DNA from: a virus
Length of the DNA: 64,000 bases
IMG/VR virus record: IMGVR_UViG_3300042914_003763
Span: 1-64,000 of that record
Reading direction: 5' to 3' (one strand)
Below the pieces are notes generated by a model. It ran no database searches, was not told where the DNA came from, and worked only from the letters and a program-made list of their open reading frames with translations. Positions 3,401 through 45,676 of this stretch are shown here, piece by piece. The first letter of the stretch is position 1; the number at the start of each line of letters is the position of its first letter. The position numbers and the translations under genes are program-made.

Positions 3401-5077
3401 ATGATCTACATGAGTAACAATCCACAAAGAGATGCAATAAGGAGAGAATTATTAGAGATAGAAAAAAAGTTAAACGATCTACAACTAAAACAACAAGATT
3501 ATGACTTACCCAAACTTGAATCACTTATTGAAGAACAAAGTTATATTGAAGCTTATGAAAGTAGTTATCAATTCCTACAACATAGCTGGTCTACATTTGA
3601 ACCATCAGATTTTCTACCTGCTAAACATCTTCATGCTATAAGTGAACATCTTGATGCTTGTTTAGCTGGTCAAATTAAAAAACTTATCATTAACTTACCA
3701 CCACGATTCAGTAAATCATCTTTAGTTAGTAAAGCATTTCCACCATACTGTTGGATTAAAGATCCTGGTAAACGTATTATCAACATAAGTTACTCCAAAA
3801 GATTAGCAGTAGGTGATTCACTTGTAAGCCGCAATATTATTGAAAGTGATTGGTATCAAAAAGGATTAAACACCGTATGGAAAGATATTAATAAATGGAA
3901 GTCAATATGGGAATTAAGTAAGGATCAGAACACTAAAGAAGATTACCGTAACACTTGGGATGGTAGACGTTTTGCTACTTCAACAGGTGGTACGTTAACG
4001 GGTGTAGGTGGTGACATCATATTAGTGGATGATCCACTTAATCCTGAAATGGCACACAGTAAGATTGAGCGTGATAATTGCAACGAATGGGCATCACAAA
4101 CATTACCATCACGACTTGATGATAAACAAAATGGTGTGATCATACTGATTCAACAAAGATTGCATGATCTTGATTTAACAGGTTATTTCCTTGAACAAGG
4201 AATATGGGAACATCTTTTTCTACCTAATGAATGGGAAGAATCACGGCGTTTTTGGACTAGTATTGGTTGGACTGATTGGCGTGTTAAGGAAAACGAATTA
4301 CTTGATCCAGTACGACACTCACAAGAAGTAACTGAACAACTTAAAGTTCAAATGGGAGAATATGGTTATGCGGGTCAGTATCAACAGAATCCTGTACCTC
4401 TAGGTGGTGGACTAATTAAACAAGAGTGGTGGAAGTATTGGTTTGTGTTACCTAACTACTTCGATAGTGCTTGTATTGCTATGGACTTATCTATTAAAGA
4501 TGGTAAGGATAATGATAATACAGCATTAGTTGCAATAGGAAAACGTGATAACAAGTTCTACATAATAGATGTTGTTTATGGAAAGATGGACATCGTTAAG
4601 CAAGTAGAAACTATAACTAACTTCTGTGATAAACATAACTGGATAAGAGCTAAGTTAATAGAAGACGCTGCTAATGGTAGTCCTGTATCTCGTATGTTAG
4701 ATAACAGAATAACAGGTCTTATTAAAGTAGCAAGTAAAGGTGTACCTAAAGATGTTCGTATTATGGCAATGATACCTGAGATTAATGCAGGTAATGTACT
4801 AATACCAGATCCTAAAATTCATAATTGGATAACACCATTATTAACAGAAGCTAATATGTTTCCTAAAGGTAAACATGACGATCTGTTAGATAGTATTCAG
4901 TATGGTTTAGACTACTTATTAGAACATAATACTTATTGTCGTATGCCAGTTGATATAATAACTGAAAGTGCTAATACAGTAAGTAGAAATCAAATAAGAG
5001 AACTTGTTGCATTAACAGATAGATTTAATAACCCTGTTAATGCAACAAGAGAATATATGAGAGGATTGTTTAATTAA
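3401..5077 (+). CDS. terL: Terminase large subunit
   Basis: Walker A INLPPRFSKS, GGTLTGVGGDIILVDDP, IQQRLHDLDL, GQYQQNP, IEDAANG, FPKGKHDDLLD. Confidence 0.95.
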   Translation: MIYMSNNPQRDAIRRELLEIEKKLNDLQLKQQDYDLPKLESLIEEQSYIEAYESSYQFLQHSWSTFEPSDFLPAKHLHAISEHLDACLAGQIKKLIINLPPRFSKSSLVSKAFPPYCWIKDPGKRIINISYSKRLAVGDSLVSRNIIESDWYQKGLNTVWKDINKWKSIWELSKDQNTKEDYRNTWDGRRFATSTGGTLTGVGGDIILVDDPLNPEMAHSKIERDNCNEWASQTLPSRLDDKQNGVIILIQQRLHDLDLTGYFLEQGIWEHLFLPNEWEESRRFWTSIGWTDWRVKENELLDPVRHSQEVTEQLKVQMGEYGYAGQYQQNPVPLGGGLIKQEWWKYWFVLPNYFDSACIAMDLSIKDGKDNDNTALVAIGKRDNKFYIIDVVYGKMDIVKQVETITNFCDKHNWIRAKLIEDAANGSPVSRMLDNRITGLIKVASKGVPKDVRIMAMIPEINAGNVLIPDPKIHNWITPLLTEANMFPKGKHDDLLDSIQYGLDYLLEHNTYCRMPVDIITESANTVSRNQIRELVALTDRFNNPVNATREYMRGLFN

Positions 5078-5089
5078 CTAATATAACTT

Positions 5090-5407
5090 ATGTTTTTTCT
5101 ATCTGATTTATCAACTTATGCTAGATCACTTGGAGCTAAAGATAAAAAGAAAAGAATACGTAAACGTGGAGTATTATTAATTAGTAATAAACTAATGCCT
5201 GGATATAAACCACATCAAACTACATATATTGGTAACAGTGAAAACAATAATAAGATATTACGAGTTCAATATCAACATAAAGATGGAGAAGAAAACAATT
5301 TAGCTTTCTTAGGTAAACCAAGATATCTTAATGTTAAAGAACGAGTACAGTTACTTAAACAAGGTTTTCTTAAAGGTGACTATAAACAAGATGGAACTAC
5401 ACATTAA
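5090..5407 (+). CDS. MFFLSD-leader family basic protein
   Basis: Starts MFFLSDLSTY-ARSLGAKDKKKR. Confidence 0.75.
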   Translation: MFFLSDLSTYARSLGAKDKKKRIRKRGVLLISNKLMPGYKPHQTTYIGNSENNNKILRVQYQHKDGEENNLAFLGKPRYLNVKERVQLLKQGFLKGDYKQDGTTH

Positions 5408-6421: not shown

Positions 6422-7366
6422 ATGGGTCACATTAAACTGTTTGAATACAACGCTAATCACATTGAATATGTACCAGGTCATGAGTTCTTTAATGGTACTC
6501 AGATGGCTAAATCTTGTGGGAAGGAAATTAAACATTGGTTAGAAAACTTACAAGCTGCCGAACTATCTTACGTATTAGCTAGAAAAAATGGAGAGGTCGT
6601 GATTCCGACTTCGCTTGAATGGCAAGGGTTTTCGACCACTCAGAAAATACGAGTAGCTAAACAAAATAAATACTGGAAGTATATTCGGATACATAAAGGG
6701 GGTGACACTCCATATCAAGGTACGTACCTTCATAAGCACATTGCAATTGCTTTTGCTCAATGGTGTAGTGCCGAATTTGCACTTCAAGTATCAGAATGGG
6801 TAGAACAATTAGCTACTCACGGTAAAGTAATTCTCAACCCAACCGAAGCTGCTGACTTTGAGAAGTTCAAACAACAACAACGTAGTAAACTTCAACTACC
6901 ATGTGAACCAGTAGATGAAATTGACTTACAGTTTCGTATATTAGATTGGGTTAACTTATGTGTCAATAACGCACGTTTCAATATCGAAGTTCCTATGTTG
7001 AATAGCAAAAACAAAGTGCGCCGTATTGACTTCATTAAGAACAACGGACGTAATGTAATAGCTTACGAACTGAAACTCAATAAGATAACACTTAATGATG
7101 TAACTGAAGCAATAGCTAATCGTGAATACTTTGAGTTGTTAAGCAATTACTTTAATCGTCCCATTACTTTTATTTTTCTATCTCCATTAGGTATCGCTGA
7201 TAATGCAACTACATTGTTACGAACTATGCCTAATATCAAGTTCCAAACTGTACATGAGTTATGTTATCAGTATTATCTTAAAGGTATTAACAACAAGTGG
7301 AAGAATAATGTTGTTAACTTAACTAACAATATGAACACTAATAGGTTTAGTTGCTTATTCAATTAG
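6422..7366 (+). CDS. KilA-N domain protein with C-terminal PD-(D/E)xK-like segment
   Basis: FNGTQMAK..GK...HWL and QGTYLH..IAIAFAQWCSAEFALQV (KilA-N); RRIDF...AYELK. Confidence 0.8.
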   Translation: MGHIKLFEYNANHIEYVPGHEFFNGTQMAKSCGKEIKHWLENLQAAELSYVLARKNGEVVIPTSLEWQGFSTTQKIRVAKQNKYWKYIRIHKGGDTPYQGTYLHKHIAIAFAQWCSAEFALQVSEWVEQLATHGKVILNPTEAADFEKFKQQQRSKLQLPCEPVDEIDLQFRILDWVNLCVNNARFNIEVPMLNSKNKVRRIDFIKNNGRNVIAYELKLNKITLNDVTEAIANREYFELLSNYFNRPITFIFLSPLGIADNATTLLRTMPNIKFQTVHELCYQYYLKGINNKWKNNVVNLTNNMNTNRFSCLFN

Positions 7367-7405: not shown

Positions 7406-8656
7406 TTAAGTTATTAACTTCTTCAATCTTTGTACTTCATTACGAAGATATTGATTCTCTATTCTTAACCTATCTAACTCACTTATTTCATTCTTAACAT
7501 CTAACATCTTATCGAATGCTTTGTTATGTGTTGTATGATCCATCCACTTCTGATAAGTCTTAGTATGTTCTTCAACACTATGTCCCATCCACTTAGCTGC
7601 TATATCAACAGCTATTCCTAATTCACTAGCTCTAATAGCATAACGATGTCGTAAGTTATAAGCAGGTTGATTGAAACCATATCTTTGAAATGCTTGATTA
7701 AGTATGCTAATAATGTTTTCAAGTTTAGTTGATGCAGTAACAAATTGCATTACATCTAACAACTCAAACTTATCTACCCATTCTGGATGAATAGGATAAA
7801 CAATACGTTCACCTGTTTTAGTATCATCAGAAATATGTAATACATTACGGTGATTACTTTCAGAAGTAAACTTACTGTAACAATCTTCTGTTAGTAAGAA
7901 TAACTCACTAGGACGTAAACCATAAGTAGCTATCATTCCGAATGTCCATGCTACTTGTCTAGGCATACCATTGAAAGTAGCTTCAATATAACCATCAGTA
8001 GGTAATGTGCGTTTCTTAGGTTGATATTTACATCTGAATTGTTTCCAATCAATATCATCTTTGATTCCAACATGATCAGCTAAACATTTAATAACACGAA
8101 TTAGATCAGCACGTGGTTTGCTGTTAGGTTGTGTTGAATCAATCCAGTTACTAATATTTGATTCAGTTAACAGTTGATCATCAGGTATCTTTAAGAATAT
8201 ATCGGTGTAACTTTTTTCCCAAGTTGATAATGTTTTACGAGACTTCTCTCTTGTTTTCCAATATGATTCGGTAAATGCCTCCTTCACTTCAAACATAGTT
8301 TGGGGTTTAAGTTGTTCAACTTTTTTCTTCTGATAATCAGGTAGTAATAACCACCATTCTTTACCACCATATTTCAAATAGGAATCTACTTCGCGGCATT
8401 TGTTTTCAGCATCAATTACCCCTTGAATAGTGGTTTCATTGAATGGTATCCAATATCTTTTTGTAGTGTTTGGGTCTTCAATTACAGGTAATGTGCCACG
8501 TAAGTACAGACGTTTATTTTTTCTATCTATCAATAACTTTGCTTTACCACTACTGTTGAGACGATTGTTGGCATCAGTAATAGCTGTATCAATTTGTACA
8601 AGAAAATTATCTTGCTTACTACGTGACTCTTCACCAACATACTTCCTGTTAACCAT
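7406..8656 (-). CDS. int: Tyrosine integrase of cyanobacterial XisA/XisC type
   Basis: LYLRGTLP, ATYGLRPSE, KTGER, YNLRHRYA, MGHS..EH..TY give the catalytic R-K-H-R-H-Y residues. Confidence 0.92.
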   Translation of the reverse strand: MVNRKYVGEESRSKQDNFLVQIDTAITDANNRLNSSGKAKLLIDRKNKRLYLRGTLPVIEDPNTTKRYWIPFNETTIQGVIDAENKCREVDSYLKYGGKEWWLLLPDYQKKKVEQLKPQTMFEVKEAFTESYWKTREKSRKTLSTWEKSYTDIFLKIPDDQLLTESNISNWIDSTQPNSKPRADLIRVIKCLADHVGIKDDIDWKQFRCKYQPKKRTLPTDGYIEATFNGMPRQVAWTFGMIATYGLRPSELFLLTEDCYSKFTSESNHRNVLHISDDTKTGERIVYPIHPEWVDKFELLDVMQFVTASTKLENIISILNQAFQRYGFNQPAYNLRHRYAIRASELGIAVDIAAKWMGHSVEEHTKTYQKWMDHTTHNKAFDKMLDVKNEISELDRLRIENQYLRNEVQRLKKLIT

Positions 8657-12462: not shown

Positions 12463-14013
12463 ATGTTTTTTCTATCTGATCTATCTACATTTAAGAAACA
12501 AAAAGATGAAGAAAAGAAACCTAATCGTACTATTCAAAAAGTTAAAGGTATTGCGTTATTAGGAGGATCTGGTATTGTTGGTACTCAAGCTGTAAGAAGC
12601 GGTTTACCTAGATTAGTTGGTGCTAGGTTAGAACAACATGGTACAAGTCGTAAAGCTGCTGCAAATATTATTAAAGAAGGTTATTTAGATCCTGCTTATG
12701 GTGGTGCAGAAAGTGGTGTTACTGCATCAATGAAGTTACCAAAAGAGTTTATGGATAGAGCTAAAGGTTACACATTTATTAGCGGTAAGAACCCTAATCA
12801 TCCATTTTGGAATGAACGTAACCCATTAAGTCCTATATGGGATGTAATTAATAGAAAAGTACAAGTATTAGGTTATCGTGGATCTAAAGCAGGTAAATTA
12901 ACAGATAAAGATGTAGAAAAAGGGGCTAAGTTTATTGGTGGTACTCTATCTTCAATGCTGAATCCACTTGAGAAAAAATTAAATGATATGACTCCTGAAA
13001 AGTATTTAGAAGAAATCAAAAAAAAAGCCGAAAGTGGAAATCGTTTCTATAAGTCACGTTATGAACGATTGAAAAATAATTCAGATGAACTTAAAGCTGA
13101 AGTTAGAAGAACTCAAAAAGATATTAAAAAAGTAATTAAACAAACTAAAGATATAGCTAAGAGAAGTTATAAAGATCCCAGTAGAATTAAAGGTATTAAA
13201 AATACACAACTTAAATATAAAGAATTATTTAATGAATATAAAGATGAATTTAAAGAATATATTAAGAACAAAGATAACATTCTTAGAGTTAGTAGTTATG
13301 AAACAAATAAACTTTTAAAAGGATCTTCATATAAACGTACATTGGATAAATTTTTAAGTGATAAAGCTAAAAGTGGAGATAAAAAGGCAGCTAGATTACT
13401 TAAATTACAAGAGTCATTACAAGATCAAATTGGAACTCAAAAAACGTCTAAATATTTAGGTTTAGGTGCTGGTTGGACTCAAAAGCTAGTTAGTTCTCCT
13501 GCTCTTGGTGCTGTTGGTGTAGGTAAAACATTATATATTCCTGGTACAGATGATTATTTCAACAATACTGAAAGGTTTAAGTATGACATAGATGATCCAT
13601 TTGGTAACCCATTAAAAATGGGTAAGTCATTTCAATCAGAACAAGGTGGTTTTGGTGGTAATGCACTTAAAACAAAAGAAAAAGTAAGAGCATTTGGTAA
13701 TAGGTTTGCTGCAACTAAATATCTGTTAGAACAAGAAGGTAATGGTAATTTATTCAAAGGTGCTGGTAAGTTAATAGCAGCTAACCCTAAACGTGCATTA
13801 GCTGGTGCAGCAATATTAGGATTAGGTGGTGCTGGTAGTTATATGTTAGGTAAGAAAGGTATTAATTTAATTAAAGGTGGTCAACCTGATAAATTAAGAG
13901 ATAGAAAAAGCAAAGTAAAATCGTATGTTCGTAAAGGTAAATTAGTTAAAGGTTTTGAAAGATTGAATCCATTTTATAATAAAAATAAAGTCAAACGTCG
14001 TAAATCTAATTAA
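12463..14013 (+). CDS. MFFLSD-leader protein with ADP-ribosyltransferase-like motif
   Basis: MFFLSDLSTF; QHGTSRKAAANIIKEGYLDP...YTFIS; Gly-rich hydrophobic segments; C-terminal KVKSYVRKGKLV. Confidence 0.65.
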   Translation: MFFLSDLSTFKKQKDEEKKPNRTIQKVKGIALLGGSGIVGTQAVRSGLPRLVGARLEQHGTSRKAAANIIKEGYLDPAYGGAESGVTASMKLPKEFMDRAKGYTFISGKNPNHPFWNERNPLSPIWDVINRKVQVLGYRGSKAGKLTDKDVEKGAKFIGGTLSSMLNPLEKKLNDMTPEKYLEEIKKKAESGNRFYKSRYERLKNNSDELKAEVRRTQKDIKKVIKQTKDIAKRSYKDPSRIKGIKNTQLKYKELFNEYKDEFKEYIKNKDNILRVSSYETNKLLKGSSYKRTLDKFLSDKAKSGDKKAARLLKLQESLQDQIGTQKTSKYLGLGAGWTQKLVSSPALGAVGVGKTLYIPGTDDYFNNTERFKYDIDDPFGNPLKMGKSFQSEQGGFGGNALKTKEKVRAFGNRFAATKYLLEQEGNGNLFKGAGKLIAANPKRALAGAAILGLGGAGSYMLGKKGINLIKGGQPDKLRDRKSKVKSYVRKGKLVKGFERLNPFYNKNKVKRRKSN

Positions 14014-14023: not shown

Positions 14024-14683
14024 ATGTTTTTTCTATCTGATTATGATGTTTCAGAATACCGTAAATTAGGTGCTAAAGATAAAACTCCTCGTAAACGTAA
14101 TTGAAAAAAGATATTAGGTTATGGTGCATTAGGTATAGGCGGTTTAGCTGCATCTGGTTTGTTATTAAGAAGGGCAGGTAAAGATTTATATAAAGCCAAG
14201 AATGTTGCTAAAAGCGTTCAAGATAATATACCCACTGTTAATACAACACCTACTAACTTTCCCAAAGTACCTCAACAACCATCTAGTGGTGTGTATAAAG
14301 ATTGGAGTGAAGAAGCAGTAAAGAAAAACCTAGATAATCCTAATTATGTTTGGGAATTTAATAGCAGCGAACTAACTACATTTAAACGAGGACGAGATAG
14401 AAAAAAGAAAGCTAAACGTATGGGTTAGTAGGGTGCTAAAGTTCGTGTTGGTACTGGTAGTGCAATGGGAGCTACTACATTAGGTACAGCAAGTTAAGTT
14501 GTTGGTGGTAAAAAAGGCGCAATGATTGTTGCTTCTTTAGGTGGAGTATTGGGTACTGCCGGATCATATCTTGAACATCGTAATTCACCTTACTCACCAA
14601 TTGGTAAAAATAAATGGAAGAATTACAAACAATCATCGAGATGGTATGGTATTCCAACTGAAAAACTTGATTTAATAGGTTAA
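14024..14683 (+). pseudogene. MFFLSD-leader family gene with four in-frame stops
   Basis: ATG 14024 MFFLSDYDVSEYRKLGAKDK; stops at 14102 (TGA), 14426 and 14429 (TAG TAG), 14495 (TAA); frame continues to SPYSPIGKNKW as in paralogues. Confidence 0.8.
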
Positions 14684-14689
14684 TAATTA

Positions 14690-16264
14690 ATGTTTTTTCT
14701 ATCTGATGTTAAGTCTGTAGAGTTTGCTAAAAGTAAAACTAAAGTAAAATCATATGTTCGTAAGGGTCGTATTGTAAGACAACATGATCGTAAAGTTGAT
14801 ATTAAATCGGCATTACTGGGTGGCGGCATTGGAATATTAGGAGTTGGTACATTAACTGGTGCTTACTTATTAGGGAAAGGTAAAGTTAAACCTCAACAAT
14901 TTAAAGTTGATACAGATGAAATAGCTAATAAGATAATTAGCAAGTTACCTAAAGAAAATATTGTTAATGTAGATGATATTGTTAGTAGAGTTAGTGAAGC
15001 AACACCTAGACCTATAGCTAAAGTTAAAATTGTTAGACCTAAACAACCTGTACAACAAACACTAACTAAACAAGATGTTGAAGATGTAGTTAAAGGTGTG
15101 TTAGATAAACAACCTAAACCTAAAACTACTAATATTGATTATGAAGAGATAGCTAAACGATTAACAGCATCTTTACCTAAACAACAAATACAAACAACAA
15201 GTAGTGTTAGTAATGTTGTTGATAGTAATTTACCAGTATTACCATTGAAAAGAGTTAATCTACCTATTAAGATATATAAACTTAGTCCTAAGAAAATAGA
15301 AGAAGAGACAAAAAAAGCAAGTGAAATGTTAGATGATGAACTCGACATTAAAATTAATGAGTTATACGAAGAAATGAAACCATTTATTGATGTAGAAGAT
15401 CAAATTAACTCCAGTAAAAGATTAAAAGAGTTGATAGAAGAATATAAAAAATTAGATAAAGAAGCAAGGCAAAGAGAAAGATGGCTAACAGAACCTAAAA
15501 ATCTTATTAATAAAATTGGTTTAAGTAAAGTAATAGATAAAGATATATCATTAGATAAAATAGATTTTGTTTTAGAAGATGATCCAGAATATTTAGAAAA
15601 ATTAAAGAAACAATTAACTAGAATGAGTAAAATTAAAAATATTTATACTGAAGAATTAAAAAAAAGAAAAAAATTAACTAGAAATCCTAATGCGTATAGT
15701 GACAATGGAATTAGTAAATCTGTAGATGTAGATGCTCCTATAATTACTACTAGTCAAGAAGAGATTGATAGACTAAATGACTTCCTAAGTGACTTTTCCG
15801 CCGCTAATGACTTAGTTAAATTTTGCAAAAAAATGAATCAACTTAACGATTCACACCTATTTTTTCTATCTGACTTAGAAGTTACATTTGCTAGACGATT
15901 AGGAAGTAAGGATAAAGTTAAACGTATGAGTAGATTAGGTGCTGGTTTACGTATTGGAATACCAGCAACAATTGGTGCAGCTATAGGTGGAGTAGCAGGT
16001 AACATGATCAGTGTTCACAATGAAGGTATTAGATCACAACTTAACAATGTTAATCCTAATTACAAGAAAGCCGCAATAATTGGTAGTTTAGTTGGTGGTA
16101 CGTTAGTAGGTGGAGCAATGGCAGGTTCTAGTTATTTAGAACATAAAGCGTCACCATATTCACCAATTGGTAAGAAGAAATGGCGCAATTATCCTGTAGA
16201 ACCAAAAGTATATGGGATACCTGTTAAAAGTTTATCATTAATTAAAGGACTAGATCAACAATAA
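14690..16264 (+). CDS. MFFLSD-leader polyprotein-like protein
   Basis: N-terminal MFFLSDVKSVEF plus KVKSYVRKG; second internal LFFLSDLEVTF-ARRLGSKDK; SPYSPIGKKKW. Confidence 0.75.
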   Translation: MFFLSDVKSVEFAKSKTKVKSYVRKGRIVRQHDRKVDIKSALLGGGIGILGVGTLTGAYLLGKGKVKPQQFKVDTDEIANKIISKLPKENIVNVDDIVSRVSEATPRPIAKVKIVRPKQPVQQTLTKQDVEDVVKGVLDKQPKPKTTNIDYEEIAKRLTASLPKQQIQTTSSVSNVVDSNLPVLPLKRVNLPIKIYKLSPKKIEEETKKASEMLDDELDIKINELYEEMKPFIDVEDQINSSKRLKELIEEYKKLDKEARQRERWLTEPKNLINKIGLSKVIDKDISLDKIDFVLEDDPEYLEKLKKQLTRMSKIKNIYTEELKKRKKLTRNPNAYSDNGISKSVDVDAPIITTSQEEIDRLNDFLSDFSAANDLVKFCKKMNQLNDSHLFFLSDLEVTFARRLGSKDKVKRMSRLGAGLRIGIPATIGAAIGGVAGNMISVHNEGIRSQLNNVNPNYKKAAIIGSLVGGTLVGGAMAGSSYLEHKASPYSPIGKKKWRNYPVEPKVYGIPVKSLSLIKGLDQQ

Positions 16265-16266: not shown

Positions 16267-17472
16267 ATGACAACTAAAAAATCTAAAGTTAAGAGTTATG
16301 TAAGAAAAGGAAAAGTAGTTAGATCATATGATCGTAATAAGAAGAAAGTTTCTTTAGCTATGCGTGCTGGTGCATTAACAGGACTAGTTGGAGGATTAGG
16401 TGCTACAGCATTATTAGCTAGAAAATATCCTAATATTGATATAAGTACACTTACTAACTTAGGTACGCAAGCTTCTATGTACGGCGCACTTGGTGGTGCT
16501 ATAGCTGGGAAAGCCATTGGTAACAGATTTTTTCTATCTCCTGAAGAACGTGAGATACAACAACAAAAACAAATAGAGTTAGAAAAAAAGATGATACCAT
16601 ATCAAGATAAAGACTTATCTGGTATTCAAGAGGGTATTTCAACAGGTACTAATTTAGCAATGTTAGGTGGTGCAGGATCATTACTTTACAGTGGTGCTAA
16701 GTTAGCTAAACAAATTAAAAAGAAATACCCTAATATTAGCCCATTAAAAGCATTGGAAGCTAGAATAGATCCTGCTGTATTACAAAGTTATGGTGGTAAA
16801 GCTTTTAAAGGTGCAGGTAAAGTGGCATTAACAGCAGGTGTAGTTGGTGCTGGTTTAGGCTACTTAGGTGGTCGTAAAAGTGCAGATAAGATTAACAAAA
16901 GATTGGGACGTGATGATATTAAAGAATCAAATAAAGAACGTGCAATTAAAATAGCTAAAGGTGTTGGTGCAGCAGCTATTGGTGCTGGTGTTTTAGCAGG
17001 ATTAAGTTATGGGATTGGTAAATTAAGTGCTAGTAATCCTGCATATCAACTTCAACGAGATAAGTTAAGAGCTATATCAGATCAGTTAGGTCAACAAAAT
17101 AGAATTAAAACTGAAGCTAAATTAAGAGAAAGTGCTAGTAAGTTAGTTGATGAATATCAATACTTATCTAGAAATAACAAAGATATTAAGTTATTAGGAG
17201 ATGGTACTAACCTTAACCCCGATGTTAATAGTTATGACATTATACGTGAACAAATTAAACGTAAAGGTGAACTTATTGGTAGAGGTATTGCTAGAAGATC
17301 AAAGCAAAATACTAATGCACTTATTAAATGGGAAAACTATTTAACCAATCCTAATAATTCAGGTAAGTTAGCAGCAGCTATCTATGCTCCTACTGGTGCA
17401 GTTGCAGGGTTAGGATTATATAAAACTAGTTATGGTGGGGATAAGTATCGTAAACGTAATAAGAATAAATAA
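16267..17472 (+). CDS. Basic Gly-rich protein with VKSYVRKG motif and several hydrophobic segments
   Basis: KSKVKSYVRKGKVVRSYDR; multiple GxxxG helices. Confidence 0.75.
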   Translation: MTTKKSKVKSYVRKGKVVRSYDRNKKKVSLAMRAGALTGLVGGLGATALLARKYPNIDISTLTNLGTQASMYGALGGAIAGKAIGNRFFLSPEEREIQQQKQIELEKKMIPYQDKDLSGIQEGISTGTNLAMLGGAGSLLYSGAKLAKQIKKKYPNISPLKALEARIDPAVLQSYGGKAFKGAGKVALTAGVVGAGLGYLGGRKSADKINKRLGRDDIKESNKERAIKIAKGVGAAAIGAGVLAGLSYGIGKLSASNPAYQLQRDKLRAISDQLGQQNRIKTEAKLRESASKLVDEYQYLSRNNKDIKLLGDGTNLNPDVNSYDIIREQIKRKGELIGRGIARRSKQNTNALIKWENYLTNPNNSGKLAAAIYAPTGAVAGLGLYKTSYGGDKYRKRNKNK

Positions 17473-19016: not shown

Positions 19017-19256
19017 TTATATATCAGATAGAAAAAATATAGGTTGTTTGTTTAGTACCTTACTAAACTGAATTAGTGTTTCAACATCAACTGATTGTTT
19101 AGCACTTTCAATATAACTAATGTTACTGTTGTCACAAAACATTAGATTAGCTAATTCTATTTGTGTTAAGTTAGCTTCTAGTCTTGCTTGTTTAATACGT
19201 TTAGCTACTAATTGTCTGTATTTGTTTTCAACTCTTGTTTCTTTAGTTATTGACAT
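19017..19256 (-). CDS. XRE-family HTH transcriptional regulator
   Basis: RIKQARLEANLTQIELA...ISYIESAKQSV...L...SKVL. Confidence 0.9.
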   Translation of the reverse strand: MSITKETRVENKYRQLVAKRIKQARLEANLTQIELANLMFCDNSNISYIESAKQSVDVETLIQFSKVLNKQPIFFLSDI

Positions 19257-21216: not shown

Positions 21217-21498
21217 ATGTTTTTTCTATCTGACTACAATATATCTGAATACGGTAGAAAAAAGGGTAGTTCAGATAAGATTCCTAGTTGGAGAAGGAAT
21301 CTAAGACGATTACGTGACTCAACTTTCAATCCTAATACTGCTAATGCTGCTGCTGTAGGTGCAACTCTTGGTTTAACAGGTGGAGCAATTGCTGGTAGCA
21401 CTCCTAGAGCTAATAAGATTGGTGCTATTGCAGGATTAGCAGCAGGTACTACAGCAGGTATTGTAAGCTCATATCGTAATAAACGTAAAAAATACTAA
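21217..21498 (+). CDS. MFFLSD-leader glycine-zipper protein
   Basis: MFFLSDYNISEY-GRKKGSSDK; two Gly/Ala helices. Confidence 0.75.
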   Translation: MFFLSDYNISEYGRKKGSSDKIPSWRRNLRRLRDSTFNPNTANAAAVGATLGLTGGAIAGSTPRANKIGAIAGLAAGTTAGIVSSYRNKRKKY

Positions 21499-23448: not shown

Positions 23449-24657
23449 ATGGGCGCAATTCAATCTTTTCTGACTGATAAATTACAAGCTAAATATGCTG
23501 AACAATTAGTTGACGATACAATGTTTCGGGTTAAGCAACGTTCTCGTTTGCTTGATCAATTCATGCCTATCAAGACTTTCGATAACAATAAATTCATTGG
23601 TTATTTAACTGAGAAGTTAATGCCAATTGCCTCTTTCATCACAAGAGATGGTCGTATTCCTACTGCTGCTCATGGTGGTTTCCAACGTATGGTTGGTGAA
23701 CTACAATTAGTAGGTTTAGCTCATCAATTTGATGGTAAAACTCAAGAAGAAATGCTTGAGTTAATGGAAGAAGCGCAATATAAGAATCAACCTATCATGT
23801 CTATGCCTAATATGAGTGGCACGGGTATGATTCGTGGACTTAACGATACTTTTGCTGAAACTATTTATAACAAGATTGAAGGATTAGTATTTGGTATAAC
23901 TGACGTATTAACAGCAATGAGTTGGGATGTAGTTTGTACTGGTGAAATCAACCGTACTGACGCTCGTACTGGTGTTTCTCTTGTAGTTAACTTCAAAGAT
24001 GATTCCGCTAGTTATACATCTAAACATTTTCCTACTGCGTTAGTGACAACAGGTAATACTGCTAATCCTAAATTAAATAAATGGGATGATTTAGAATATG
24101 CAGATGGTATTGGTTTATTACAAGATTGGGTACTTGATTATCAAGATACTAATGGTTTTAAACCTGATCTGATTGTAATGTCAGAACGTCGTTTAATCAA
24201 TTTGTGTCAACAAAAAACAACCATTGAAAAATCACGACAATTAGCAGGTTTTGGTGGTGTTGGTGCTGTTAGTATGAACACATTATCTCAAGTGTTAATT
24301 GCTTATGGTATTCCTCCAATTAAGACTTATGATGAATACTATCAAGTTCCTTACACCAATGCTCAAAACTCAACCGCAACTAGAGATAAATATGTTGATA
24401 ACGCACGTTTCTTACCTGAAAATCGTGTAGTAATGTTGAAGACTGACATGGGTGTTCAAGCAATGGGTCAAACTATTGAAATGAAACACTTCCAAAACAA
24501 CATCAACCAAACACGTCTATCTCAAGAAGGTAGTTCTATTTTGGTTATGGTTAACTCTCGTAGTCAACTTCCTTTGTTAGATACGATTGAATCTATGAGT
24601 GTTCTATTACCTGTAGTTATGAATCCTAAATACTTAGCAGGTCGCGTAGTAGTTTAA
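23449..24657 (+). CDS. Major capsid protein (lambda gpE-like family)
   Basis: LDQFMP, KWDD..ADGIG, GFKPDLIVMS, IKTYDEYY, RFLPENRVV; 402 aa; strong terminator follows. Confidence 0.8.
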   Translation: MGAIQSFLTDKLQAKYAEQLVDDTMFRVKQRSRLLDQFMPIKTFDNNKFIGYLTEKLMPIASFITRDGRIPTAAHGGFQRMVGELQLVGLAHQFDGKTQEEMLELMEEAQYKNQPIMSMPNMSGTGMIRGLNDTFAETIYNKIEGLVFGITDVLTAMSWDVVCTGEINRTDARTGVSLVVNFKDDSASYTSKHFPTALVTTGNTANPKLNKWDDLEYADGIGLLQDWVLDYQDTNGFKPDLIVMSERRLINLCQQKTTIEKSRQLAGFGGVGAVSMNTLSQVLIAYGIPPIKTYDEYYQVPYTNAQNSTATRDKYVDNARFLPENRVVMLKTDMGVQAMGQTIEMKHFQNNINQTRLSQEGSSILVMVNSRSQLPLLDTIESMSVLLPVVMNPKYLAGRVVV

Positions 24658-24735: not shown

Positions 24736-25587
24736 ATGTTTTTTCTATCTGATATTAATGTTGAGTTTGGTAGACTTTTAGGTTCTAAAGATAAAAAGAA
24801 ACGTAAATCAAAATTTATTCGTAATATTGGACTAGGATTAGGAAGTACAGGTTTAATATTAGGATTAGGTTATTTAGGATTAAAAGGTAAAGGTAATAAA
24901 ATACCCCCAACTTTTAAATTAGATCCTAAGAATATATTAGAAACACCACCTAATGCGACAAGTTCTAATAAAGCGATTCAAGGCAATTTAAAGTTACAAG
25001 GTGTAGTAGGTAAAGATAATTTAAAAGAAAGAATTGATGATAGAAGAATGGCTGTAACAGGTTCAAGAACATTAAAAGATGCTAAATATTATATTAATAA
25101 CTTAAAGAAAAAATACGGTAATAAAAAAACTGCTCAAATGATGAGAGAAAATGCAACTAGGATAAAAAAAGATCGTATTGCGATAATAGGTTATTATTCT
25201 GCTAATAATAATGATGTAATTGAATTTGGTAGGAGAACTGGTAGTAAGGATAAGAAGAAAAGAAAAGTTTATAGATTAAGAAATGGGCGCATTTTGAAAC
25301 CTAATCAAATTGTTAATGCTAATGATGGTAAACACAAAAAAATAGTATTAGCAAGTAAAGTTGTTAACGGTGAACGTAAATATAAAGTAATTCGTTTTGG
25401 TGCTAAGGGATACGGACATAATTATTCACCAGAAGCTAGAAAAAACTACCTTAAACGTAGTGGTGGAATAAGAAATAAAAGTGGCGAATTAACTAAGGAT
25501 GATAAGTTTAGTAAAAACTATTGGGCTAGAAAAATACTATGGGGTCGTAATACTAAACCATCTGGCACTGGTAGGTTTGCTAAATGA
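24736..25587 (+). CDS. MFFLSD-leader polyprotein-like protein (true start likely 24736)
   Basis: MFFLSDINVEF-GRLLGSKDKKKRK; internal VIEF-GRRTGSKDKKKRK; C-terminal IRFGAKGY...YLKRSGGI...FSKNYWARKILW domain. Confidence 0.75.
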   Translation: MFFLSDINVEFGRLLGSKDKKKRKSKFIRNIGLGLGSTGLILGLGYLGLKGKGNKIPPTFKLDPKNILETPPNATSSNKAIQGNLKLQGVVGKDNLKERIDDRRMAVTGSRTLKDAKYYINNLKKKYGNKKTAQMMRENATRIKKDRIAIIGYYSANNNDVIEFGRRTGSKDKKKRKVYRLRNGRILKPNQIVNANDGKHKKIVLASKVVNGERKYKVIRFGAKGYGHNYSPEARKNYLKRSGGIRNKSGELTKDDKFSKNYWARKILWGRNTKPSGTGRFAK

Positions 25588-30034: not shown

Positions 30035-30271
30035 ATGTTTTTTCTATCTGACTTTCAAGAGAACTTAGAGTTCAGTAAAGGTAGAAAAAAAGGATCAAGA
30101 GATAGAAAAAAAAGGGTGAGACGCAAAGAAGATAAAAACAATTTACGTAAAAATATAAATACAGGAACAAGTACAGTTCGCACTGGTATTCACACAGCAA
30201 AAGAAGCTAGAGGTGTTAGTCGTGAGGTACGCGGTTGGTTATCACTTGCTAATAAATTAGGGATTATTTAA
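30035..30271 (+). CDS. MFFLSD-leader basic protein
   Basis: MFFLSDFQENLEF-SKGRKKGSRDRKKR. Confidence 0.75.
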   Translation: MFFLSDFQENLEFSKGRKKGSRDRKKRVRRKEDKNNLRKNINTGTSTVRTGIHTAKEARGVSREVRGWLSLANKLGII

Positions 30272-30273: not shown

Positions 30274-30736
30274 ATGTTTTTTTTTATCTGACTATCAAAG
30301 TATTGGATTCAAAAGAGGTAAAGATAAGAAGAAACGTAAAAGCAAAGTGGGTAGTATGATGATTCCGGCTATTCCTGGTGGGGCAGCAATTGGTATGTTA
30401 CCTGCTGCTGGTTATGCCGCACTTCAACTAGCACGTAAAAAACCAGTTAATATGAAAACATTAGGTTATACATTAGGTGCTGGTGCAGGAATTGGTGCTA
30501 TCGGTGGTGCAATAGCAGGAGATAGACTTGATAAAAAAATGAAAACCGGACGATATGAACGATTAAGACGTGGCGACACCATCAATGCTAAAACTTATGT
30601 TAAAGGTGGTTGGTTTGGTTTAGGTCTTAGTAAAGGTAAACCGCTCAAAGTTAAATCAACTGGTAACGATCAAAAAGACGCTATTAAATTAGCTAAAACA
30701 TTTTATAATCGTGAAAAGAAAGCTGGTAGAATGTAA
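30274..30736 (+). pseudogene. MFFLSD-leader gene with +1 frameshift in a poly-T tract
   Basis: ATG followed by T9 (T8 at 32251); removing one T gives MFFLSDYQSIGF-KRGKDKKKRK in frame with ORF 30347..30736. Confidence 0.75.
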
Positions 30737-30753
30737 TACTAAACAGTAATATA

Positions 30754-31350: not shown

Positions 31351-31875
31351 ATGTTTTTTCTATCTAATTTATCAGAGTACGGCAGAGGTAAAGATAAACG
31401 ACCACGTAAGAAACGTAATATGGTTATTGGAGCAATAGGTGGTACTGCTATAGGTGCTGGTATTGGTTATGCTAGTAAACCTAGTAAATATAAATTAACT
31501 GGAATTAAAAGATATAATGATATTGAGAAAGAATATAAAAAATCTATTATTGAAACCACAAAAGATATTAATAATCCAGATTTTGATAAAAGTTATAATC
31601 AACAACGTCTTGCTAATATGCAAAAAGAATTAATAGAATGGCAAAATAATAAAAATAAAATTATTAAAGGTTACGCTCAACATACAAAAGGATCTGAAAC
31701 AATGAAAAAATTTGATTTCATGCACAATCAGAAACAATTAGATAAGTTAGGTAAACTATCTAATAAAATAGGTTCTAAACGTGCATTAATTGGATCAGGT
31801 ATTGGATTAGCAGCAGGTTTAGGTGGTACTTATCTATATAACAAGTTAAGAAGTAACAATGAAAATAAACGTTGA
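31351..31875 (+). CDS. MFFLS-leader Gly-rich protein
   Basis: MFFLSNLSEY-GRGKDKRPRKKR; two GxxxG helices. Confidence 0.75.
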   Translation: MFFLSNLSEYGRGKDKRPRKKRNMVIGAIGGTAIGAGIGYASKPSKYKLTGIKRYNDIEKEYKKSIIETTKDINNPDFDKSYNQQRLANMQKELIEWQNNKNKIIKGYAQHTKGSETMKKFDFMHNQKQLDKLGKLSNKIGSKRALIGSGIGLAAGLGGTYLYNKLRSNNENKR

Positions 31876-32250: not shown

Positions 32251-32598
32251 ATGTTTTTTTTATCTGATATTGATTCAAGTAATTATGGGAGAGGTAAAGA
32301 TAGAAAAAAGAGAAAACAAAAAATGAGTAAGTTAGGTGCAGGGTTACGATTGGCTACTGCTAGTACAGTAGGAGCAGGAATGGGTACATTAGCTAGTTTA
32401 CCTTGGAGAATTAAATATGGTAATAAAGCTAATTTAATTGGTGCAGGAATTGGTGCTGGTATATTAGGAGGTGCAGCTTATTTAGATCATAGTAATAGTC
32501 CTTATTCGCCTATAGGTAAAAAGAAACATAAACCATTTTCAGATAATCATCCTATGAGAAAATTAATGTTTCAAGATATGAGTCGTATTGATGACTAA
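32251..32598 (+). CDS. MFFLSD-leader Gly-rich protein
   Basis: MFFLSDIDSSNY-GRGKDRKKRK; MSKLGAGLR; SPYSPIGKKK. Confidence 0.75.
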   Translation: MFFLSDIDSSNYGRGKDRKKRKQKMSKLGAGLRLATASTVGAGMGTLASLPWRIKYGNKANLIGAGIGAGILGGAAYLDHSNSPYSPIGKKKHKPFSDNHPMRKLMFQDMSRIDD

Positions 32599-34640: not shown

Positions 34641-37600
34641 ATGTCTCAATTAATGAATGATTATCAACAAGAAGTAGCCCTTAAATTTGAAGGAGAAGAT
34701 AATCTTAGTAAAGTTGTTGATAATATTTCTGAGCGTATTAGTAATATGCAAACTAAGGTTATGGCTGCTAACCTTGGACTTGGAGGATTGAAAAAAGTTA
34801 CAGGTGATAATGTAACTACATTAGAAAAATTTGGAAAACAAATTGCAGCTACAGATAAATTATTAATGAAAGCATTCAATGTAGCAACTTTCGCTAAAAT
34901 CGGCGCAGTATTAGCTGATGGTATTAAGAATGCAACAAGAGAATTATCAGGTTTTTCTACAGGAATTAAAGCATTTACCGCTTCAGGATACACAACTCAA
35001 ATAATTGATGATTTCACTAAGGTTCGAGATGCAATCTTAGGTAGTAAAGAAGCAGTAGATCAATTCAGTTTGCAAGCTTTAACTGCTTATAATCGCTACA
35101 AGAAAGCACAAACTGAAGTAGAAGTATTATTCAGTAAAGGTAGTGAATTTATTGGTGATTTAAGTAAGAACATTCAAAATCTTGTTAATAACGATCTCAA
35201 AAATGCTATAAGTTCGATTGATGCGTTAGGTGCAGCATATCAAGCGGCATCTGCTAGTTTCACAGAAGCAAGTGAAAATACGGCTGTGATGACAGCAGGT
35301 TTGAAGTTAGCTAAAGCTGGTGGTGCTGACACTGGTGCGACAATGAAAGTGTTGACACAAACAATACGTGCTTATAATATGTCAGCTACAGACTCCAATA
35401 AAGTAGCAGCAGTATTGAATAAAACTATTCAGTTAGGTATCACAACGATGCCTGAACTTGCTAATGGTTTTGCACAATCAGCCGTAACAGCTAACGCCGC
35501 AAAAGTTAAATTAGAAGAATTAGCAGCAGGCGTAGCAGCACTAACTCTACAAGGTTTTGATACTCCTAGTGCATTAACTGGATTAGAAGCATTATTCAGA
35601 AACATCATTAACAAAACACCTCAAGCAGAAGCGGCATTACGTAGTTTGAGAGATGAAGTAGGTAAACCAATTAGATTCGATATTGCTGAAATTAAGACTA
35701 AAGGTTTTGCCAAGGCATTAGATGATTTAAATAAAGCGGCTAAAGGTAACGCTGAAACATTAGCAACTATTATCCCAGAAGCCACTGCTTACAATACAGC
35801 ATTAGCGTTAATGAGTAATAATGCTCAACAATTAAAAGATAATAGTAAATCAATGTTTGAGATTACTGAAACAGGTAAAAAAGCTAGAGAAACATTAGAT
35901 GAAGTATTTGGCATTAAGATATCATCACAAGCTGAAAAGTTTGATGCAATTATTAATCGTATAACAGAACAATTTATTCAGTTCGGTGAACAAATAGCAC
36001 CATTCTTTCAAGTTGGTGTAGATGTGTTAGAAAAAACTGTTAGTGCTTTATCTTCTATCTCTCCAGAAATGAAGAAGATAATTGCACAATGGATAATATT
36101 TCAAATGGGCGCAGGTCAAGTTACTAATGCAATTGGACAATTAGTAGGTGCAGCAACTCAAGCGTTTATGATATTCCAAGGTTGGAGGATTTTTACAGGT
36201 TTGTTTAATGGTGAATTACTCAAACAAGTAAAGATAGTACAAGAACTTGCTAAAGCTAATATTGGTTTATTACCTGTAGTTAAACAAGTAATAGGAATAG
36301 ATCAACAACATCTGTTACTAGGACAAGAACTTAATTTACAACAACTTAATAGATTTCAAATTATAGGTAAGTTACGTGAACAAAATTTAGGACTAATTGC
36401 ACAAGCTAAACAGTTAATAGGAATAGATCAATCACATCTACTAGTAGGGCAACAATCATTAACATTAGATGAACAACGAGAAGAAATATTAAATAGGTTA
36501 GTTGAACAAAATAAAGACTATAAAAAAGTATCTAAAGAATTAAGTAACATAGAAAAAGAACATTTAGATATTACAACTAAAGTTAAAGAAGCAGAAGATA
36601 AGTTATCTGAATCATATACTAAGTTAGCTAAAGATAAATACGATAAATCAAAGTTAGAAAAAGAACTTAATTCATCTACTGCTAAATCGGCAGATGAACA
36701 ATATCAGTTAGCAGAACGTTATCAACAACAACAAGAACTTATAGCTAAATCTGAAGCTGAATTAGCAGTTAACAAGAAAAATAAACTTGACTTAGATGAA
36801 AAAGCAGCTAAGTTACAACAAGAAGTTGCTGATAAAACCGCTAAAGCTGAAAAAATCTCACAAACAGTTAAAGATAATACGCTCAAAATACAAAAGGCGC
36901 AGACGTTAGCAGAAGAATTACAACGTAAAGCTGTTGAAGCTAGAACATTAGCTGATTTAGCATCTAGTCAAGCTCAAACAGCTAAAGCAGCCGCAGATGC
37001 AGCAGGTGGAACTAATGCAACACTTAACGCAGCAGCAGAAGTAGCATTAGCTAACGCAACAACTCTTGAAACAGCAGCAGAGGTAGCTAACACAACAGCT
37101 ACTAACGCTAATAATGCAGCAAGAACTTTAGGTACAACATTAGCAACAGAACAAGGTATTGCTGAAGGTAGATTAATTAAAATTAGAACATTAGCAGGAG
37201 AACAAATAGTTAAAAATACATTACTTAACCGAATGTTAGGTTTTTCATTTAAAGACTTAATTCCCAAAATGGATGACGTTAAAAAGACAAGTGGCAACTT
37301 ATGGACTAACTTAAATAAACCAATTAATTTTAGTGGAATTAAAGATGGCGTTAGTAGTTTATTTAGTAAGCTTAGTGGAATGTTACCTATTGTTGGACAA
37401 ATAGGAACTAAGTTATTAACATTCGCACCAATACTATTACCAGTAGCAGGAGCAGCAGCATTACTATATGATCAATTCGCTGGTACTTCTGCTCAAGTTA
37501 GAAAACTGCAAGAAGATTTAACTAAGATAAATAAAGAACTAGAAGTATCAAAACTTAAAACACTACAAGACTTAGATAGTAAAGGTAAGTTGAGTTATGA

Positions 37601-40932: not shown

Positions 40933-41670
40933 ATGTTATTTTTTCTATCTGATTATAAATATTCTAATTATGCTAGAACATTAGGTGCTAAAGATAAGAA
41001 AAAGAGAAAAAGTAATTTGTTACGTAACGTAGCTATAGGTGCTGGTGGATTAGCATTAGCTGGCGGACTAGGTTATTTAGCATTACGAGGAAAAGGTAAA
41101 CCAAGCGGTGGATCTAATTCGCTTAGTGGTGCTAGTTCACCATCATCATCTACTACACCTTCTGTATCAAATAATAGAGCATTAAATGATGTTGATGTTA
41201 AAATTGAAGCACCTAAAATTAAACAATCTAAACCACAAATAGAGTCTCAATCAAGAATAACACCTCAGAGTGAACCCACTAAACCATATCCAACTAGAAG
41301 TTTCACACAAGATGAATTATTACAACGTGGTAACTTGAAAGCTAGATATAATTCAGATCCTTTATATACAAATAAGAAGGTAGGTTTATATGGTAGCTTA
41401 ACTAAAAAACAACTTAATTCAAGACGTATTGCAGAGAGAAGACAAAAAATTGCAAATGAGTTAATTACTTCTCCTAATAAAAATAATTATACAGGTATTA
41501 ATAGCAATAGGTATAGTTACGTTCAGAGACCTGGTAAATCAACATTGTATGGATCTAAAGATTCTTACGATACACAAATAAGAAAATCAATATCTAAAGA
41601 TATTAAGTCACTGAACAAATCCTACATAGATAGTAATTACAAAACATACCGTAACTACATTAACTTATAA
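40933..41670 (+). CDS. FFLSD-leader basic protein
   Basis: MLFFLSDYKYSNY-ARTLGAKDKKKRK; GAGGLALAGGLG helix. Confidence 0.75.
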   Translation: MLFFLSDYKYSNYARTLGAKDKKKRKSNLLRNVAIGAGGLALAGGLGYLALRGKGKPSGGSNSLSGASSPSSSTTPSVSNNRALNDVDVKIEAPKIKQSKPQIESQSRITPQSEPTKPYPTRSFTQDELLQRGNLKARYNSDPLYTNKKVGLYGSLTKKQLNSRRIAERRQKIANELITSPNKNNYTGINSNRYSYVQRPGKSTLYGSKDSYDTQIRKSISKDIKSLNKSYIDSNYKTYRNYINL

Positions 41671-43303: not shown

Positions 43304-43320
43304 GAGATAGAAAAAAGGAT

Positions 43321-45432: not shown

Positions 45433-45579
45433 TACCAATAAAGCGTAGGTACTCTTTGATATAAAGTTAGTAATACTAGCAGAATATTAGACCCTACGCG
45501 ATGATTAAAACAGTGATGGTAAAAAAATCAGTAGAGTTATCGTTAATGTGCTTTATGCTCCGTGTAACCCTACTATTAT

Positions 45580-45650
45580 GGGACTATAGTGTAATGGTAA
45601 CACAAGGTTCTGTCTAAACCTTATTGCAAGTTCAATCCTTGCTAATCTCA
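45580..45650 (+). tRNA. Atypical tRNA, anticodon GTC (Asp-like)
   Basis: GGGACTA/TAATCTC acceptor with a C-A mismatch, GTGT/ACAC D-stem, AGGTT-CTGTCTA-AACCT, GCAAG-TTCAATC-CTTGC; U37, A73. Confidence 0.65.
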
Positions 45651-45676
45651 TTAAACATCAAGCTAAAACAACAATT

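Follow-up and report, generated by a model that had tools for sequence, protein, structure and literature searches.

A strand-specific DNA word probably overlaps an independent protein leader at the starts of late genes in an uncultured lake phage

The window analysed here, a stretch of 64,000 nucleotides of viral DNA, makes up the opening 64 kb of one contig of 117,113 bp and 32% G+C (IMG/VR record IMGVR_UViG_3300042914_003763). Its source is an uncultured, tailed lake phage of ~117 kb, and the 24 public sequencing runs listed as containing its DNA are lake or freshwater metagenomes. The contig ends share a 127-bp overlap, which leaves a genome length of 116,986 bp; the genome is therefore complete, and circular or permuted. 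In our own greedy map of open reading frames (ORFs), on which all gene calls rest, 162 ORFs cover 89% of the genome. Most late genes occupy the + strand between ~9 and 57 kb, and the early and replication genes follow on the − strand, starting at 57.5 kb. Two elements are considered below: a short DNA sequence, TTTTTCTAYCT (the word), that recurs throughout this genome, and a leader peptide at the start of about a dozen late proteins, whose first codons are for the most part spelled with that same word.

The block formed by a start codon and the word, ATGTTTTTTCTATCTGA, occurs in eight exact copies in the window, against 0.04 expected from shuffled sequences. The ORFs at these sites, including two with one mismatch, begin MFFLS[DN], and one further ORF begins MLFFLSD. 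The leader sites, all on the + strand, are the following.

5090..5106, +: exact copy; leader start (ATG plus word) of ORF 5090-5407, which begins MFFLSDLSTYARSLGAKDKKKRIRK...
12463..12479, +: exact copy; leader start of ORF 12463-14013 (516 aa), in which the basic part of the leader has diverged
14024..14040, +: exact copy; start of the leader in a family gene that an in-frame TGA interrupts at 14102-14104
14690..14706, +: exact copy; leader start of ORF 14690-16264 (524 aa), followed by a second basic module, KVKSYVRKGRIVRQHDRK
15857..15873, +: complete internal leader, in frame, at residue 390 of ORF 14690-16264
21217..21233, +: exact copy; leader start of ORF 21217-21498 (93 aa)
24736..24752, +: exact copy; leader start of ORF 24736-25587 (283 aa)
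30035..30110, +: exact copy at 30035; leader of ORF 30035-30271, with the word at 30039-30049
30274..30292, +: frameshifted family member, ATG plus nine T
31351..31367, +: one mismatch (AAT for GAY); leader start of ORF 31351-31875, MFFLSN, with the word intact
32251..32308, +: one mismatch (TTA for CTA); leader of ORF 32251-32598, with the word lost at the start
40933..40952, +: leader start of ORF 40933-41670, MLFFLSD, with the word at 40940-40950

Among nine paralogues, nucleotide identity forms a sharp block of 17 nt, with background levels on either side. Across the genome, leucine is written TTA in 58% of cases and CTA in 12%, and serine AGT in 44.5% and TCT in 21%. The initial annotation of this DNA had remarked that the leaders use CTA in a genome that mostly uses TTA, and this is borne out: the leader leucine is CTA in 9 of 11 cases, against a background of 12-13%. 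The nine genes that it counted with the motif directly after the ATG are reached only when ORF 40933 is included, in which TTA stands between the ATG and the word; in the other eight, the word begins one base past the ATG. It had also held that at 32251 and 30274 a TTA codon preserves the peptide and loses the DNA motif, which is correct at 32251 only. At 30274 the gene is frameshifted, so that the ATG opens MFFFI-stop and FFLSD, with its TTA leucine, lies in the +1 frame without a start codon. Two of the leaders contain further copies of the word in reverse complement, at 30079-30089 and 30100-30110, where they code for GRK and DRK of the 30035 leader, and at 32298-32308, where DRK of the 32251 leader is encoded.

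All eight exact ATG-plus-word starts open peptides of the leader family, the match being weaker at 12463 and 14690. No ATG with the word was found to have captured an ORF outside the family; ATG-T-word occurs at one further place, 62186 (in the TACCT form), where it runs antisense to the −-strand gene that contains it. The leader genes lack a Shine-Dalgarno sequence. Since the same is true of most late genes, a translation signal specific to the leaders was considered and rejected.

The gene at 14024-14690 is paralogous to ORF 14690-16264, specifically to its C-terminal third. Its first stop, the TGA at 14102, reads TGG in a ~99% identical relative, and it is followed in frame by TAG TAG at 14426-14431 and TAA at 14495; with four in-frame stops, this family gene is probably a decaying pseudogene. 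ORF 14690-16264 looks, by its sequence, like a fusion of two family genes: its internal leader at 15857, where CTA replaces ATG, reads ...HLFFLSDLEVTFARRLGSKDKVKR plus a Gly-rich segment, and the match of the leader profile to P0025 covers residues 390-421. At the position of 30274-30740, the leader of the ~99% identical relative (L005:16536) is intact and runs straight into ...RLRRGDTINAKTYV, where the present genome places a frameshifted leader and an extra Gly-rich module before the same RLRRGDTINAKTYV sequence. The difference looks like the gain or loss of a module via recombination between leader repeats.

At the protein level, the ~12 late-module ORFs have in common only their first ~27 residues, M-F-F-L-S-D...F-[AG]-R-x-x-G-x-K-D-K-K-K-R-K, ahead of a Gly-rich hydrophobic segment, and their genes sit among those for head, connector and tail. 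Twenty-one leaders from five phages were aligned; the family-wide form is M-[FYI]-[FY]-L-S-D-x(2-5)-[FY]-[AG]-R-x-x-G-[SA]-K-D-K-K-K-R-K, usually with a Gly-zipper hydrophobic segment after it. When a profile of 20 leaders was searched against 1.84 billion protein representatives, 96 clusters matched at E<=1e-3, most of them from residue 1 and some internally or repeatedly. Their N-termini include MFFLSD (18), MYYLSD (7) and MIFLSD (7), among others, and the most constant part across the 96 matches is FAR..G.KDKKKRK. When the leader proteins were searched in Pfam and PHROGs, the leader itself fell within no family; the searches returned only weak Gly-zipper matches and one C-terminal domain, in the 24736 protein, that matches phrog_220, annotated as 'minor head protein and DNA pilot'. 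A homologue search that used the first 40 residues of the 24736 protein recovered no other protein, and a search of the ESM Atlas gave nothing above chance score.

Relatives of the phage were found through its major head protein, first as 15 homologues of 38-93% identity and then as 17 metagenome loci. Apart from a 50-kb viral contig and a contig from a Scytonema assembly, each of those discussed below covers ~21 kb of the late region. The relatives bear the leader module on several late genes, with the N-terminus MFFLSD in L045 (64% identity in the major head protein), MFFLSH in L057, MFLSD in L060, MYILSD, MQLLSD and MFLMTD in L048, and MYYLSE and MHYISD in L059. The leader peptide thus appears to be under selection at the protein level, for the relatives retain it with other codons or residues.

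In the published account consulted, the capsid-targeting sequence of phage T4 is the only conserved part of diverse internal proteins and directs them into the scaffolding core (PMC3012670). In that description it resembles the present leader, as a short N-terminal peptide common to otherwise unrelated late proteins of one phage. The leader differs in being strongly basic, in normally being followed by a Gly-zipper hydrophobic segment and in occurring internally or in repeats. We know of no genome-wide DNA word with which the T4 sequence coincides. Because of the analogy, the leader may be an assembly or virion-targeting signal, or else a topology signal for small membrane-active virion proteins. 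This assignment draws only on gene position, the one phrog_220 domain and the analogy itself, and no prohead protease was recognised among the ORFs of the head module. A predicted complex of the major capsid protein with the leader scored 0.00 in a run without controls and carries no weight either way. The leader family is put forward as a new protein family and as a candidate virion-targeting or membrane-topology signal. A second basic module, (K)VKSY(V)RKGKxV(R/K)x(Y/F)xR, is found in Gly-zipper late proteins at N-termini, after the leader or at C-termini (window positions 14690-14790, 16267-16340 and 13930-14010; L048 positions 388, 2930 and 3658), and it often replaces the FFLSD leader.

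The word itself extends far beyond these genes. No 11-mer is more frequent in the complete genome than TTTTTCTAYCT, which occurs 112 times, 55 times on the + strand and 57 on the −; 64 of these copies have TATCT and 48 TACCT. A third form, TAACT, occurs 12 times, and with A allowed at position 9 the total is 124, or 62 on each strand. The flanks are not conserved beyond a T before and a C after. The core 8-mer, TTTTTCTA, is present 172 times in the genome against 11.6 expected. The window holds 69 exact copies of TTTTTCTAYCT, and 90 when one mismatch is allowed, against 5.2 expected. The exact copies in the window start at the following positions.

+ strand (35): 2504, 3208, 4215, 5094, 7173, 7390, 8518, 9240, 12467, 14028, 14694, 15861, 16529, 18917, 21221, 24740, 26501, 30039, 31355, 33096, 34297, 40940, 43356, 43730, 47094, 48989, 49433, 51239, 52248, 58217, 59628, 60076, 60851, 62190, 63425
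− strand (34): 430, 1021, 1722, 3456, 5746, 6341, 8753, 9126, 10897, 13899, 14395, 19026, 23373, 24662, 29923, 30079, 30100, 32298, 34572, 37846, 40174, 43305, 45000, 46856, 48835, 54549, 56277, 58104, 59018, 59724, 61173, 61749, 63323, 63719

Only about one-tenth of the 112 copies in the genome are leaders, in line with the earlier remark that most motif copies encode none. The others lie inside unrelated genes in both orientations, in the T-tracts of terminators and ahead of other start codons, several of them directly before the ATG (AGGTAGAAAAA-ATG). By context, 43 copies are antisense within coding sequence, 37 are sense within coding sequence and 32 are intergenic or straddle a gene end, so that 71% are intragenic. 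There is no strand bias in either the + late block or the − early block, and no link to the direction of transcription. Along each strand, the copies are spaced more evenly than random (coefficients of variation 0.74, P=0.010, and 0.72, P=0.003), with a mean gap of 1.9 kb and largest gaps of 6.3 and 6.0 kb. Proximity to gene boundaries is enriched 2.4-fold, 34% of copies lying within 30 bp of one against 14% of random positions. The two main forms are unevenly divided, with a TATCT:TACCT ratio of 41:15 in the late region and 23:33 in the early region (Fisher P=0.001). Use of the word as the T-tract of an intrinsic terminator was considered and rejected as its function: a hairpin with a folding energy of -8 kcal/mol or lower precedes only 13 of the 112 copies, compared with 6.5% of other T5 runs, which makes this a minority use. 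In IMG/VR, the exact 17-mer is multi-copy only in three near-identical contigs, and another 34 contigs have one match each.

Copies of the word that lie close together tend to be inverted, as is the case for 15 of the 17 pairs at most 130 bp apart (P=0.002). Several inverted close pairs flank terminator-like hairpins, for example those at 43305/43356 and 102726/102756. Such pairs raise the possibility that sense (U-rich) and antisense (A-rich) copies pair in RNA and thereby control translation or processing, including the sequestration of leader starts. Under this proposal, the balance of sense and antisense copies would be expected, the Y/R position would still permit U-A, C-G or G-U pairs, and the two leaders that have the word at their start and its complement 40-60 nt downstream would be direct examples. 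An 11-bp A-U-rich helix is weak, however, and the majority of copies stand alone, since just 18 adjacent pairs among the 124 copies are separated by 200 nt or less. A scarcity of close direct repeats would also follow from deletion avoidance, and the amino-acid changes that create isolated copies, described next, would be hard to justify by pairing. We regard RNA pairing as an improbable explanation of the word.

The imprint of the word on the proteome is considerable. Of 12 FFLS tetrapeptides in the phage proteome, 11 are coded by the word, with 0.16 expected; the corresponding figure for [EQK][IV]EK is 33 of 37 with 1.6 expected, and 25 of 27 [FIVL]FL[SP] and 14 of 22 [DG]RK peptides are likewise word-coded. 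At the orthologous positions, relatives have DKK for DRK, FAVN for FFLS, LFAP for FFLP and EVED for EIEK, and word copies have therefore been made partly by amino-acid replacement. Repeated 'protein motifs' in a phage proteome, such as EIEK and FFLS, can in this way be by-products of a DNA word. Further evidence comes from the 50-kb viral contig, which aligns with 13191-64116 at ~98.9% identity: it differs at 497 of 44,537 aligned bases and at none of the 561 positions within 51 word sites, where ~6 differences were expected (binomial P=0.0018). The word thus appears to be under selection at the DNA level. Two sites outside the leaders illustrate this coding.

16529..16539, +: word in ORF 16267-17472, where residue 87 begins FFLS; FAVN in the orthologue of L045
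19017-19256, −: XRE-type helix-turn-helix (HTH) regulator of 79 aa, antisense in the head-gene block

The C-terminus of the HTH regulator, IFFLSDI, is coded by the word at 19026-19036 on the − strand, as ATA TTT TTT CTA TCT GAT. The gene is syntenic in every relative examined (L045, L048, L053, L057, L059 and the Scytonema contig), and the C-terminus is [IV][YF]FLSD[IF] in all of them, written with TAT TTT CTA AGY or other codons. These six residues resemble the N-terminus of the leader family, a likeness for which the hydrophobic final helix common in domains of this type may be the whole explanation.

These sites also bear on a simpler account, in which the identical 17-mer results from recent duplication or gene conversion among paralogues and has no function as nucleotide sequence at the leader starts. 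The leader genes are indeed paralogues, and modules are shuffled among them, as seen in the internal leader of ORF 14690 and in the arrangement at 30274 in the ~99% relative. Conversion tracts would be expected to be longer than a sharp block of 17 nt, however, and FFLS sites other than leaders are spelled alike, both in ORF 16267 and at the HTH C-terminus, which is recoded with respect to the TAT TTT CTA AGY of the relatives. Copies of the word outside leaders are moreover both conserved and enriched, and the leader leucine codon follows the genome-wide word in three lineages, as set out below. Homogenisation is accordingly given very little weight.

In the 21 kb of the present phage that are homologous to the metagenome loci, TTTTTCTA occurs 36 times and TTTTTCTT 6 times. 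The proportions are reversed in the 21 kb of L045, with 6 copies of TTTTTCTA and 29 of TTTTTCTT. A different word, TTTTTCTTAC, is found on both strands of L048 and L053 in 8 and 6 copies, against ~0.07 expected, and no word enrichment was seen in the ~21 kb each of L057, L059 and L060. The Scytonema-associated relative contains 143 copies of TTTTTCTA in 115.7 kb against 12.3 expected. The leucine codon of the leaders was compared with these spellings. In the Scytonema-associated relative it is CTA in 4 of 4 leaders against a background of 13%. In L045, 5 of 7 leaders read CTT TCT, against a CTT background of 16%, and the remaining two read TTA AGT. The L048 word does not fit the leader, and the leaders of this relative have TTA or CTA without uniformity (MYILSD and MQLLSD with TTA, the background codon). 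Thus, by comparison of the sequences, the leader leucine codon appears to track the genome-wide 8-mer of each lineage, be it TTTTTCTA or TTTTTCTT. The alleles of the word among the relatives do not follow the tree of the major capsid protein.

The Scytonema relative (40% identity in the major capsid protein, 44% in the primase, 42% in the helicase and 58% in the HTH regulator) lies on a 155.7-kb contig of a Scytonema sp. assembly. The phage-like region of this contig (G006:C247, 40-155 kb; loci L064-L070) measures at least ~115 kb. It contains 49 sites of GCGATCGC, a palindrome that we take to be the cyanobacterial HIP1 repeat, against ~1 expected, so family members infect or reside in filamentous cyanobacteria; the present phage has none. 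In the 11.3-Mb assembly as a whole, the 11-mer occurs 86 times, against 39 for a reversed control; 21 of the 86 copies fall within 100 kb of the one phage-like contig and 65 elsewhere in ~11.1 Mb. The concentration in the phage-like contig therefore suggests that the word belongs to the phage, not to the host.

This result bears on the idea that the word is a Chi-like sequence or an ameliorated host repeat, comparable to cyanobacterial GCGATCGC, through which the phage exploits or evades a host enzyme. Balanced orientation and even spacing would suit protection from a nuclease that enters at DNA ends, the 127-bp overlap points to a circular or permuted genome, and the Scytonema relative has taken up a host-type repeat at its 49 GCGATCGC sites. 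Yet in the Scytonema sp. assembly, the one host assembly covered, the 11-mer does not appear to be a genome-wide host word and shows no enrichment outside the phage-like contig. Since TTTTTCTA is common to both phages and GCGATCGC present in only one, their hosts probably differ, which is a further difficulty for a host-derived word. An origin of this kind is very hard to credit.

The reading that we prefer, with a probability of about 0.7, is that two independent signals, an old protein module and a genome-wide, strand-specific DNA word, overlap at the leader starts. The ~27-residue module would head, and sometimes repeat inside, about a dozen late proteins per genome. The word TTTTTCTAYCT would be kept at ~1 site per 1.9 kb per strand across 117 kb, whatever lies there, and would be written into coding sequence in every permitting frame, amino-acid changes included. 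Because TTT TTT CTA TCT is one way of writing FFLS, the word would have been fitted by recoding into almost every leader start, and the tolerance of leader residues 2 and 3 for F, Y or I would permit such recoding. Where the word differs in a relative, as with TTTTTCTT, the leader leucine codon would shift with it, in that case to CTT. The leader appears to predate each individual spelling of the word and to be more widely distributed, and the word would neither have created the leaders nor regulate them specifically.

The initial annotation had proposed that both the peptide and the DNA motif are selected, and had set beforehand a comparison of leader codon choice across orthologues. Its proposal has held up, in that the leucine and serine codons of orthologous leaders depart from background and match the word of the lineage; leaders with background codons were not what was seen in the present phage, L045 or the Scytonema relative. 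The two mechanisms that it offered have not fared as well. Seeding of new leaders by the repeat finds no support, given the ~27-residue module, which reaches well past the word, and the leaders without a word in L048 and L059 (MYYLSE). A regulator binding at the translation starts of this family does not agree, as stated, with the ~90% of copies that lie elsewhere. Some points weigh against the overlap of two signals as well. The enrichment of TTTTTCTT in L045 is modest (29 copies against 4.1-5.7 expected), comes without an extended consensus and could stem partly from Lys-rich coding. In addition, the codon probabilities treat paralogues as independent and hence overstate significance.

If the overlap is real, the same bases serve two unrelated purposes at the leader starts. 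The phage would thus offer a natural case of overlapping constraints, in which a genome-wide DNA signal dictates amino acids and codons and is imprinted on a conserved protein signal. That the word is balanced between strands, evenly spaced and variable in allele from lineage to lineage suggests a DNA transaction that depends on sequence, such as priming, silencing or nicking, and that is not known to us in such form from other phages. We infer that the word is the recognition site of a DNA-acting factor encoded by the phage. One candidate for this factor lies outside the window.

genome 78693-79538: split gp4-like primase (phrog_47, E=7.7e-6; primase half of phrog_239)

The protein has the primase motifs CxxC...C..C (zinc finger) and EGEK...DxD (TOPRIM), and its gene adjoins those for the helicase (genome 76844-78721) and the DNA polymerase; its primase relatives in IMG/VR reach only 23-36% identity. 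Our leading guess, offered tentatively, is that the word is the site at which this primase starts Okazaki primers. The template 5'-TTTTTCT-3' would be copied, and the lineage-variable 3' flank would be recognised and left uncopied. A bolder extension, which we hold to be somewhat more doubtful, is that this phage family uses a 'priming code', in which the primase needs a start signal of 8-11 nt. Chance alone would furnish a signal of this length too seldom, so the whole genome, down to protein sequences and the opening codons of a dozen late genes, would have been rewritten until each strand offered one roughly every 2 kb. A switch in primase specificity between A and T at one position would then change the leucine codon of all leader genes in concert.

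The comparison with phage T7 is instructive in this regard. According to the parts of a published account that bear on it, T7 Okazaki fragments measure 1,000-6,000 nt, the T7 gp4 primase recognises a 'cryptic' 3' base that is not copied, and known primases of the DnaG/gp4 type recognise 3 to 5 nt (PMC8599759). As in T7, whose gp4 sites are 5'-GTC-3' plus flanks, the present phage has its own gp4-type primase beside the helicase. The word, like the T7 sites so described, is strand-specific and found on both strands, its spacing (mean 1.9 kb, maximum 6.0-6.3 kb) falls within the T7 Okazaki range, and its lineage-variable part lies on the 3' side, where T7 has the uncopied base. Several observations count against priming. 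The word is 8-11 nt long, unlike known gp4/DnaG sites of 3 to 5 nt, which need no enrichment. Neither the inversion of close pairs nor the division between late TATCT and early TACCT is explained by a primase, and a DNA-binding regulator or RNA pairing would accommodate both more readily. A full-text literature search for the motif strings gave nothing on phage among the matches listed, and a search for over-represented phage motifs on both strands gave nothing matching. To our knowledge, and within a limited literature search, no primase site of 8-11 nt that requires rewriting of a genome is known.

A regulator of this kind is the chief competitor of the primase. In this account, the word would be a dispersed asymmetric operator for a phage repressor or silencer, or for an architectural protein, with ~124 sites among which the leader starts simply happen to be some. 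The closest parallel is with the stoperators of Cluster A phages such as L5 and Bxb1. As far as the account at hand describes them, L5 carries more than 20 13-mers across its genome, bound by a monomer, and stoperators follow the direction of transcription, lose function if reversed and lie in short intergenic spaces (PMC9283540). The word shares with these sites, on that description, a short asymmetric form, a genome-wide distribution at ~1 per 1-2 kb, a preference for gene boundaries and a sequence that varies between related phages; an 11-bp asymmetric site at ~1 per kb is of L5-type size and density. The small XRE-type HTH regulator, found at the same place in all relatives, could supply the protein, and the weak integrase-like match at 7406-8656 (E=0.014), the 2.4-fold enrichment at gene boundaries and the inversion of close pairs are all in keeping with an operator. 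The early and late forms of the word could then be two affinity classes. On the other hand, the orientation of the word is unrelated to transcription, with 43 antisense against 37 sense copies and a 62/62 division between strands, and most copies are inside coding sequence, only 32 of 112 being intergenic or straddling a gene end, unlike stoperators as described there. The HTH regulator is also present in L057 and L059, where no word was seen. An operator is thus possible, with a standing only slightly below that of the primase start site.

A third DNA transaction to be weighed is nicking, in which the word would mark single-strand nicks introduced by a phage nickase into virion DNA, as in T5, phiKMV-like phages and tf. 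In the portion of the literature consulted, nick sites have a short asymmetric consensus peculiar to each phage and lie on one strand only, at 4 to 14 sites, and the tf consensus, TACT/RTGMC, has a one-base variant in relatives (PMC3517423). So described, these consensus sequences resemble the word in being asymmetric and peculiar to a phage, with lengths of 7 to 20 nt, and the co-evolution of nick sites with the nickase would parallel the A/T allele of the present word. The 124 word sites, 62 on each strand, differ from that pattern. Nicks on both strands every ~1 kb, some of them 21-50 bp apart on opposite strands, would moreover fragment the genome, and no nickase candidate was identified among the phage genes. 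We consider nicking even less probable than RNA pairing.

Beyond the leader genes, the window contains the usual landmarks of a tailed phage, and the replication set of the genome comprises the DNA polymerase, a DnaB-like helicase, the split gp4-like primase and an exonuclease.

3401-5077: large terminase
23449-24657: major head protein
34641-40913: tape-measure protein (2,090 aa)

A nucleotide search of a phage collection gave no match to the genome, and a search of the same kind of collection with the large terminase protein (TerL) gave identities of at most 34% and no close relative. A few further genes deserve mention. The weak match at 7406-8656, on the − strand, is to tyrosine integrases and hints at a temperate lifestyle; a KilA-N domain protein is encoded at 6422-7366. 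At genome positions 113131-114213, a 360-aa protein with a weak NusG-like domain hints at control of transcription elongation by the phage. Finally, a tRNA-Asp (GTC) gene lies at 45579-45651, between genes of the tail region.

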